A DNA stretch of 64,000 nucleotides from Promethearchaeota archaeon (GTDB lineage Archaea; Asgardarchaeota; Lokiarchaeia; Sigyniarchaeales; SOKP01). The translations under genes and the position numbers were made by a program. The first letter of the stretch is position 1; every line of letters starts with the position of its first letter. Of this stretch, positions 30,375 through 31,702 are shown in pieces. The stretch is from assembly GCA_029838195.1 (NCBI GenBank), contig JALGVJ010000004.1, positions 64,001 through 128,000 on the forward strand, read 5' to 3'. The notes below the pieces were generated by a model that saw only the letters and a program-made list of their open reading frames with translations, ran no database searches and was not told the DNA's origin.

Positions 30375-31172
30375 TTAGTACTCTTCCTCTTCTTCCCCGA
30401 ATTCTGCTTCTTCCACGCGAGGCGCCAAGAAATAAATGAGTTCTCCTCCTTCTAACAAATTAAATTTCATTTTTAAGGGATGATCCGTGCGTGTAGAAAT
30501 TTCTAATTTCTCAGTAATGGATGATAGATTTAAAATTGCTTTTAGAAAAGTAAGAGAATATGCTCCCTCGCTCATTTCTGAGATATTAGCATCGAGTAAA
30601 TCATCTAATGATAAGCTATATTCCATTTCCCCTATTTGCCCGGTAGAACTAAAGATCAAGCCTTCATCTTTTACTGCCTTTATATTAATGAGCTCTGAAT
30701 AGATTTCCGCATCTTTAATTGCTTCTACGAGATATTCCGGTGACATTACCCAACTTACTGGATATTCACTGTTAAGGATGTTATCAATGGGTAACTCTTC
30801 AAATTCCATATCCAAAACAGCCAAACTAAACGTGCGGGTCCTAGAAACACCTTCCTTTTGCATTTTAATAAGGATTTTTTGGTCTTTTTCCTTGAAATTT
30901 AATTCAATAGAATCATCCGGCGCACTTCTTTTTAATATCTTATTTAGATCATCTAAATTTAATCCAACTTTAGATTCCTGGCTACATTTAAATTCATCGA
31001 AATTCTCTTTCTGAATCGAGAGTTTTAAAAGACAAATCCGACTGGGATCCATTGCAGAAATAGAAAATTCAGCAGGTGTCACCTTGAATTCCGTCTCATC
31101 AATAATGTTAGCCAAGGTCTCAATAATAACTTTTAAAATCCGACTATTTTCTAATTTTAATGTAAATGAAAT
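30375..31172 (-). CDS. pcn: PCNA sliding clamp with inferred ATT start codon
   Basis: AMDPSRICL, YSLTFL, YFLAPR. The frame extends upstream of the track start (TTG 31115) as ISFTLKLENSRILKVIIETL to ATT 31172, directly after an in-frame TAA and 7 nt after GGTG. Confidence 0.93.
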   Translation of the reverse strand: MSFTLKLENSRILKVIIETLANIIDETEFKVTPAEFSISAMDPSRICLLKLSIQKENFDEFKCSQESKVGLNLDDLNKILKRSAPDDSIELNFKEKDQKILIKMQKEGVSRTRTFSLAVLDMEFEELPIDNILNSEYPVSWVMSPEYLVEAIKDAEIYSELINIKAVKDEGLIFSSTGQIGEMEYSLSLDDLLDANISEMSEGAYSLTFLKAILNLSSITEKLEISTRTDHPLKMKFNLLEGGELIYFLAPRVEEAEFGEEEEEY

Positions 31173-31369
31173 TTATAAGCACCTTGTTTCCTTTTTTTAT
31201 GATAAGATAGAGTTATTCACACTAATTAAAAAATTTAATATTAACCTTTTATTAAACAATAATAATATTAATACCCTTATTATTCTAATGTTCAACTTAA
31301 ACTTTTAATAGTTATTTTAAATTTCTATCCTAAATTATTTTTACCATGTTCCTTCTAAGGTGATTATAA

Positions 31370-31702
31370 ATGGAATCTCAACACGCTCGGCAAAGAACTA
31401 TCGAAGATATTATAAACAACGATATTTACATTCAAATCACGGGTTATGTAAAAGAATTACTCGAAAATAATCAAATCATTTTGAAGGATAATACAGGTAA
31501 GATTAAAATTGATCTCGGTGAAATTGAATTTCCCTACAAAAAGAACGATTTGATTAATGTCATTGGAGAATTAAACATTACCATGGCAGGGGAAAAAATC
31601 ATCCAAGCTAAAATAATTCAGGACATGAGGAATTTAAACTTCGAATATTATGAAAAACTTTATAAAATCAAGAAAGAATTCATTAAACCGGATTCTTATT
31701 GA
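31370..31702 (+). CDS. Small OB-fold protein, RPA3/RPA14-like subunit
   Basis: RTIEDI..D.YIQITGYV...LKDNTG...LINVIG...AKIIQDM plus a C-terminal helix, similar in layout to Thermococcales RPA14; SD AAGGTG. Confidence 0.7.
   Translation: MESQHARQRTIEDIINNDIYIQITGYVKELLENNQIILKDNTGKIKIDLGEIEFPYKKNDLINVIGELNITMAGEKIIQAKIIQDMRNLNFEYYEKLYKIKKEFIKPDSY

Follow-up and report, generated by a model that had tools for sequence, protein, structure and literature searches.

A probable AUU start of the PCNA gene in an Asgard archaeon as one instance of apparent near-cognate initiation across its family

The PCNA locus

The analysed window, a 64-kb stretch of the AT-rich genome (G000) of a Loki-type Asgard archaeon, carries the gene for the sliding clamp PCNA on its minus strand (Table 1). 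The gene reads as 265 codons from an ATT codon, followed by a TAA stop (30375-30377). Its 5' end on the minus strand is AAGGTG CTTA TAA ATT TCA TTT ACA, and with more of the upstream sequence ...AAGGTGCTTA TAA ATT TCA TTT ACA TTA AAA.... After the ATT, 18 further sense codons without ATG, GTG or TTG lead up to a TTG (31115-31113), and in translation this extension is I-SFTLKLENSRILKVIIET-L. The in-frame TAA directly before the ATT (31175-31173) rules out any start further up in this frame, which is closed again by another TAA 7 codons above; there is no ATG upstream of the ATT. A listing of open reading frames with canonical starts gives only a 246-aa product, from the TTG. The sequence-only reading of this DNA had described a 19-codon extension above the TTG, devoid of ATG, GTG and TTG and preceded by a TAA, and every descriptive detail of it proved correct. 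The divergent neighbour of PCNA encodes an OB-fold protein with a weak Ten1_2 match (E=2e-6).

Table 1. Features around the PCNA start in the window, and genes with apparent near-cognate starts elsewhere in the genome
Feature	Location	Strand	Start codon or motif	Basis
PCNA CDS	30375..31172	-		Translation; Pfam PCNA_N and PCNA_C; PDB chains from residue 3
Probable initiation codon, aligned with orthologue Met1	31170..31172	-	ATT	Comparison with relatives
In-frame stop directly upstream of ATT	31173..31175	-	TAA	Sequence
Shine-Dalgarno (SD) motif, 7 nt before ATT	31180..31184	-	AGGTG	16S 3' end complementarity, spacing, conservation
18 N-terminal PCNA codons (first strand and start of first helix)	31116..31169	-	No canonical start	Substitutions relative to G001, coding score
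Leu codon 20, start used by the ORF caller (246 aa)	31113..31115	-	TTG	TTA in G001
Conserved A/T-rich block, putative BRE/TATA	31230..31253	-	AATAAAAGGTTAATATTAAATTTT	Identical or near-identical in G000, G001, L185
Ribosome-binding context and ATG of divergent OB-fold (Ten1/RPA3-like) gene (31370-31702)	31357..31372	+	ATG	Ten1_2 match
MinD/CbiA-type ATPase	C35:164345-165148 (L031)		CTG	Pfam-verified
C5 DNA methylase			ATA/ATC; first canonical codon 114 codons down	Pfam-verified
SDR and two Zn-ADHs			ATT	Pfam-verified
Three Ras-like GTPases			Near-cognate	Pfam-verified
Phosphodiesterase			ATA	Pfam-verified
Response regulator			ATA	Pfam-verified
XPD			ATA	Pfam-verified
ABC ATPase			ATT	Pfam-verified
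aIF5A			ATT	Pfam-verified
Rad50/SMC-like ATPase			ATA	Pfam-verified
Acyl-CoA synthetase			ATC	Pfam-verified
eS26	C40:1919-2191 (L052)		ATT, 7 nt after GAGGT	
Rpo7	C22:14699-15283 (L053)		ATT, 8 nt after GGTG; first canonical codon 48 codons down	
aIF1/SUI1	C92:9631-9954 (L051:1417-1740), outside the window		First ATG in zinc knuckle (C-S-M-C); upstream ATT codons only	

The N-terminal extension of PCNA

The product read from the ATT contains both domains of a sliding clamp (PF00705 and PF02747) at full length from the first beta strand. Its residues 3-124 match positions 2-123 of the Pfam PCNA_N profile (E=1.3e-20), and residues 134-251 match PCNA_C. Residues 3-255 align with residues 3-249 of PDB chain 1ge8. 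Since solved archaeal PCNAs pair residue 3 with residue 3, the ATT lies exactly at the Met1 position, aligned with Met1 of Pyrococcus PCNA.

An open stretch of 19 codons is by itself unremarkable at 33.5% GC, and it is the coding score together with the Pfam and PDB matches that sets this one apart: its hexamer score ranks among the highest 1% of those for stop-free non-coding windows in the genome. Over the 19 codons, including the ATT, this genome and that of a congener (G001) are separated by 3 conservative replacements and 7 synonymous changes, and such mostly synonymous change is the signature of a translated region. PCNA has one match in the 4.5-Mb, 96.6%-complete genome, so this copy must be the working clamp. 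Its stop-free frame, its 79% identity to the G001 protein and the mostly synonymous change at its 5' end are those of a functional, non-decaying gene; judged from these substitutions, the PCNA N-terminus is under purifying selection.

Conservation of the PCNA start

The codon at position 1 of PCNA was read across 40 relatives. The congener G001 has the identical GAAGGTGCTTA TAA ATT TCA TTT, and GGTGCTTATAAATT is shared with three more public assemblies, L184 (GCA_054387035.1), L186 (GCA_029838155.1) and L185 (GCA_054386595.1), the last of which represents a more distant strain or species of the same genus. ATT is found at the PCNA start in all five assemblies of the genus (G000, G001, L184, L185 and L186), with a lowest protein identity of 79%. 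In other genera of the family the aligned codon is ATG at 17 of 20 loci and the start is shifted by 1-2 codons at 3; one additional locus has a longer N-terminus started by ATG, and another is cut by a contig end. ATG is also present at 6/6 PCNA loci of other families. The concern that all close relatives might carry ATG is thereby removed, the congeners all having ATT and the other genera ATG. Sister genera read TAA ATT/ATA/ATC ATG AGC/TCG TTT at this place and the genus reads TAA ATT TCA TTT, so the genus form could stem from a single 3-nt deletion of the ATG or from a G-to-T change.

Codon 20 of PCNA, the TTG in this genome, is TTA in G001 and CTT, CTA or TTA in most other genera. The first canonical codon of G001 PCNA is number 30, and the TTG at 31115 therefore cannot be a conserved start.

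A G-to-T error at position 31170 had been named as a possible artefact. Contigs assembled from runs X1 and X2 (two studies, hydrothermal-vent sediment) span this position without any other letter, at a low depth of 2.75-3.7, and the contig from run X3 ends before the ATT. With the same ATT in five assemblies, a sequencing error is excluded for practical purposes. Public annotations of the gene differ: NCBI calls the PCNA CDS from the ATT in L184 and L185 (265 and 266 aa), and the 246-aa form is found in JGI and in further NCBI records.

Translation signals

The AGGTG motif upstream of the ATT is complementary to the 16S rRNA 3' end of this genome, GGATCACCTCCT, which is of the standard type. 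The spacing between GGTG and the start codon peaks at 5-11 nt genome-wide, a range that includes the 7-nt spacer of PCNA. AGGTG is kept in all five assemblies of the genus; the corresponding letters are AAGTG, AATGTG or AAGAG in several ATG-bearing sister genera, and the PCNA SD is stronger in the ATT genus. SD runs of at least 4 precede 39% of likely ATG starts in this genome and runs of at least 5 precede 14%, a minority in both cases. PCNA has the features of an SD-led near-cognate start: canonical codons are lacking from the stop up to the conserved N-terminus, the SD is at a usual distance, and the codon is conserved in relatives.

The A/T-rich block about 60-80 nt above the ATT, which is identical or nearly so in G000, G001 and L185, is a plausible BRE/TATA element and would imply a leadered mRNA; promoter scans of the sigma-70 type are inapplicable to archaea. 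The predicted folding energy between the putative transcript start and +30 is -1.6 kcal/mol, which 199 of 200 shuffled sequences equal or better.

The initiator tRNA is standard (CAU anticodon, A1:U72, GGG/CCC anticodon stem). A pattern search of the genome for an initiator-type anticodon arm (GGG[C/T]T-NNN-ANCCC in a tRNA-like context) with another anticodon returned none. With only the ordinary CAU initiator, AUU must be read with a third-position mismatch. As a separate observation, ARAGORN finds only 15-16 tRNA genes in this 96.6%-complete genome with the intron search on or off, which suggests that most tRNA genes have unusual introns or are split.

The ribosome-binding context of the divergent neighbour, AAGGTGATTATAAATG, is identical to that of PCNA at 14 of 16 positions with a 7-nt spacer in both, and rps27e (GGTG-TAAGCTC-ATG) again has a spacer of 7 nt. 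The 16-mer AAGGTGNTTATAAAT[GT] occurs at two sites only in the 4.5-Mb genome, those of PCNA and its neighbour. The identity is 12/16 in L185, and the G001 neighbour has a different spacer, of 8 nt. The near-identity claimed for the two contexts, including the spacing of rps27e, thus stands for this genome, but it is lower in L185 and G001, so that the two contexts do not form a shared element maintained across the genus.

Apparent near-cognate starts elsewhere in the genome

The start-less leaders of 4640 long ORFs were scanned for ATT, ATA, ATC or CTG behind an SD run of at least 5 and followed by coding-like sequence, yielding 68 candidate sites. Many of these visibly encode conserved N-termini, including P-loops, Rossmann motifs and MKxxV beginnings. 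In 15 of 20 candidates tested, the Pfam domain begins upstream of any ATG, GTG or TTG (Table 1). In the MinD/CbiA-type ATPase the Walker A motif lies 39 codons above the first ATG, and the CTG is placed 8 nt after AGGTG and one codon past a stop.

A second sample, blind to the SD, consisted of 20 ORFs in which the sequence ahead of the first canonical start scored highly as coding. Pfam verified three of these and refuted two, for which a canonical start fits; the others lacked an informative match. ACG was also seen as an apparent start in this sample. A longin-like plus Arf-type GTPase protein (C72:22099-23907, L202) has an apparent ACG start 6 nt after AGGTGA, and its orthologue in another genus of the family (G024, L177:10387-12717) has ATA at the same place. 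An ABC ATPase (C43:8028-8987, L198) has its Walker A above any canonical start and an ATT directly past a TAA, with no recognisable SD; this arrangement may reflect termination-reinitiation coupling to the upstream gene. A uL11-like frame (C47:5206-5688; GPPIGPAVGP...) is preceded by an open stretch unlike the usual uL11 N-terminus; a frameshift, a misassembly or one more unusual start may be the cause.

At least 21 other genes together with PCNA give a floor of about 22 starts of the SD plus ATT/ATA/ATC/CTG type, or ~0.5% of genes. The total estimated as an excess over a null is rough, ~100 genes with an intergenic null and up to 250-300 with a laxer one. A mixture estimate of coding leaders (47%, ~525 ORFs) was discarded, since the off-frame null behind it was unsuitable and inflated the figure. 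In the restricted enrichment, SD runs of at least 5 precede 12% of near-cognate codons vs 6.5% of other codons (p=0.003), a difference of only ~2-fold. Over all leader ATT codons there is almost no enrichment (3.9% vs ~3%), because most leader codons are not starts.

Start codons across relatives

The start position of eS26 in the family of this genome (f1) is occupied by ATT (6 loci), ATA (3), ACG (G001), GTT, TTG (5), GTG and ATG (7); in families f2-f4 it is ATG in 6/6 loci read. For Rpo7, the codons are ATT (10), ATC, ATA, TTG and ATG (12) in f1, with one ATA in f2. Across the genera of the family (relatives L054-L113), the starts of both genes almost always stand behind GGTG or GAGGT. Counted over the orthologues of PCNA, eS26 and Rpo7, an SD run of at least 4 accompanies 25/26 near-cognate starts vs 25/45 ATG starts, a comparison that is indicative only because kin are not independent samples.

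In aIF1, 18 of 22 f1 genomes have no canonical codon from the upstream stop to the first Cys, and a conserved ATT or ATC (I-K-D-D-D-I-C) is found instead; the remaining 4 have GTG. The nine aIF1 loci read in f2 and f4 have ATG, GTG or TTG. A conserved GGTTGTGA precedes the ATT/ATC in many of these f1 genomes; the GTG within it opens a tiny out-of-frame ORF that ends on ATT-AAA in some genomes, and is in frame in four. The aIF1 loop KRKWGR looks alike between families, judged by eye only.

In 400 kb sampled from the f1 genus G024, Pfam verified the near-cognate starts of three genes (encoding a GPN GTPase, a GFO/IDH/MocA oxidoreductase and a GT2 glycosyltransferase), and other candidates look plausible. 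The same amount of sequence from G032, a complete f2 genome, yielded one such start, in a MazF toxin.

Several loci of relatives have other irregularities. The eS26 match of G024 (C6:441741-442036) is split, with three stop codons, and the Rpo7 match of G017 (C2:124878-125450) has one TAA; gene decay, misassembly or recoding may lie behind these. Two genomes have, besides the normal clamp gene, frames of 398-417 aa with a PCNA-like region of 31-38% identity (G005:C32, G006:C45 and G006:C65), which may be fused PCNA paralogues.

Interpretation of the PCNA start

PCNA has no canonical start available, its ATT and SD are conserved in the genus, and the same pattern recurs genome-wide and family-wide. 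Sequence comparison makes it probable that the AUU of PCNA is one instance of SD-led near-cognate starts used throughout the family, not a switch specific to this gene. We infer initiation at this AUU, the insertion of Met and the efficiency of the start. In the proposed mechanism, a leadered and almost unstructured PCNA mRNA would pair its AGGUG with the 16S rRNA 3' end, setting the P site of the 30S subunit 7 nt downstream on the AUU (31172-31170). The ordinary initiator Met-tRNA (CAU) would then pair with the AUU with a mismatch at the third position, which the proofreading system of this lineage would tolerate, and the product would be the full-length clamp, (M)SFTLKLENS.... In the same way, SD-led ATT, ATA and ATC codons, and at times CTG or ACG, would serve as starts of ~0.5% (a floor) to a few percent of genes, and start codons would drift between ATG and ATH among genera of the family. 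The ATG of PCNA would have been lost in the ancestor of the genus, through a G-to-T change or a 3-nt deletion beside a pre-existing ATT.

Initiation at the TTG would leave the 19 codons untranslated and yield a 246-aa PCNA lacking the first strand and half of the first helix. This reading agrees with the TTG being the first canonical start codon of the frame and with the 246-aa product annotated in several public records, but the TTA of G001, with a first canonical codon only at number 30, the mostly synonymous changes over the 19 codons and the alignment of the extension to Pfam and PDB PCNA from residues 2-3 all contradict it, and nothing resembling an SD is evident in the codons immediately upstream of the TTG; we give it next to no credence. 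Very improbable, too, is an artefact or recoding event, whether a sequencing or assembly error of an ATG, a start at the GTG (31182-31180) followed by a +1 frameshift, or readthrough of the TAA. The contig depth is indeed low, and the 12-codon frame opened by the GTG within the SD overlaps the PCNA start. However, the same ATT is present in five assemblies from at least three species or strains, no shifty motif is present, and upstream of the ATT there is a second in-frame TAA but no ATG. A gene-specific frameshift cannot explain the more than 20 other genes in which SD, spacer and ATH lie directly past an in-frame stop.

The remaining alternative accepts the AUU start and sees in it a selected device like that of infC, with PCNA output tuned to start-codon stringency (aIF1 activity) and clamp supply coupled to the state of the translation apparatus. 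Several observations are in its favour. The aIF1 gene itself has a conserved ATT/ATC start in 18/22 family genomes, and any AUU-started gene will in principle respond to the level of aIF1, which makes a stringency feedback loop conceivable; the design is common to other information-processing genes (aIF5A, eS26, Rpo7 and XPD); and the SD is stronger in the ATT genus than in its ATG-bearing sister genera. Nevertheless, the PCNA ATT is young and confined to one genus, the other family genomes examined having ATG. The genes with this layout, many of them unrelated and non-essential, show no functional theme and include those for dehydrogenases, small GTPases, a DNA methylase, ABC ATPases and a MazF toxin, and frequent switching at one start position among genera is expected of near-neutral drift under AT pressure. 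On this evidence a selected PCNA device is unlikely, and a lineage-wide tolerance of near-cognate starts is the simpler reading. The SD-assisted near-cognate initiation proposed by the sequence-only reading is thus retained, there being no usable canonical start and the ATT being fixed in the genus, but its special infC-like device is not. The further proposal that the AUU ties clamp levels to start-codon stringency is unsupported, given an ATT limited to one genus, at least 21 unrelated genes built alike and orthologues whose starts switch.

Within the preferred reading of family-wide near-cognate initiation, start-codon stringency could be constitutively relaxed in this family through a feedback in which aIF1 is itself made from its conserved AUU/AUC (18/22); we put this forward tentatively, as a possibility with the odds somewhat against it. 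If true, the aIF1 loop would be an archaeal counterpart of the autoregulation of bacterial infC and eukaryotic eIF1, the essential genes for PCNA, Rpo7, eS26 and aIF5A could lose AUG without harm, and plastic near-cognate initiation would predate eukaryotes, being present in their closest prokaryotic relatives.

Implications for annotation and initiation

Standard gene finders allow only ATG, GTG and TTG, so that N-termini would be cut or missed in ~0.5% to a few percent of proteins. Among such proteins are replication, transcription and translation factors used in Asgard phylogenies and structure predictions. Public records already mix the correct 265/266-aa and the truncated 246-aa PCNA for the same gene. 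Archaea with eukaryote-type initiation factors appear to accept AUU, AUA or AUC as the sole starts of essential genes, given an SD. The near-cognate start of the gene for a fidelity factor makes the setting of start-codon stringency testable in the lineage closest to eukaryotes. A search of the accessible literature found no paper on near-cognate codons as sole starts in Asgard archaea. In model systems AUU starts are inefficient and aIF1 is reported to discriminate against non-AUG codons (PMC6237735), which counts against an abundant essential clamp being made from AUU.

Comparison with known systems

SD-led AUU starts are known in kind; of greater interest in the present case is the family-wide scale, together with the conserved ATT of aIF1. 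In bacteria, AUU starts behind an SD are used by E. coli infC (encoding IF3) and pcnB, and NCBI table 11 lists ATT, ATC, ATA and CTG as alternative starts. Like these genes, PCNA has its AUU at the conserved Met position, with normal SD spacing, no canonical alternative and conservation in close relatives. Unlike them, it is served by an archaeal, eukaryote-like machinery (aIF1, aIF1A and aIF2); and the design is found here in many genes instead of two or three.

The factors eIF1 and aIF1 proofread start codons, and eIF1 autoregulates its synthesis through a poor start context. The aIF1 gene of this family resembles that of eIF1 in that a fidelity factor has a weak start of its own (ATT/ATC in 18/22 family genomes). 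It differs in that the weakness lies in the codon, which stands behind an SD, and not in a Kozak-type context.

In ribosome profiling of Haloferax volcanii, near-cognate codons made up ~30% of the putative alternative sites, and the authors left them aside (PMC7261190). Both cases indicate that archaeal ribosomes can engage near-cognate codons. In H. volcanii, however, these are alternative or minor sites in a mostly leaderless transcriptome, whereas in the present family they would be the sole possible starts of conserved and essential proteins.
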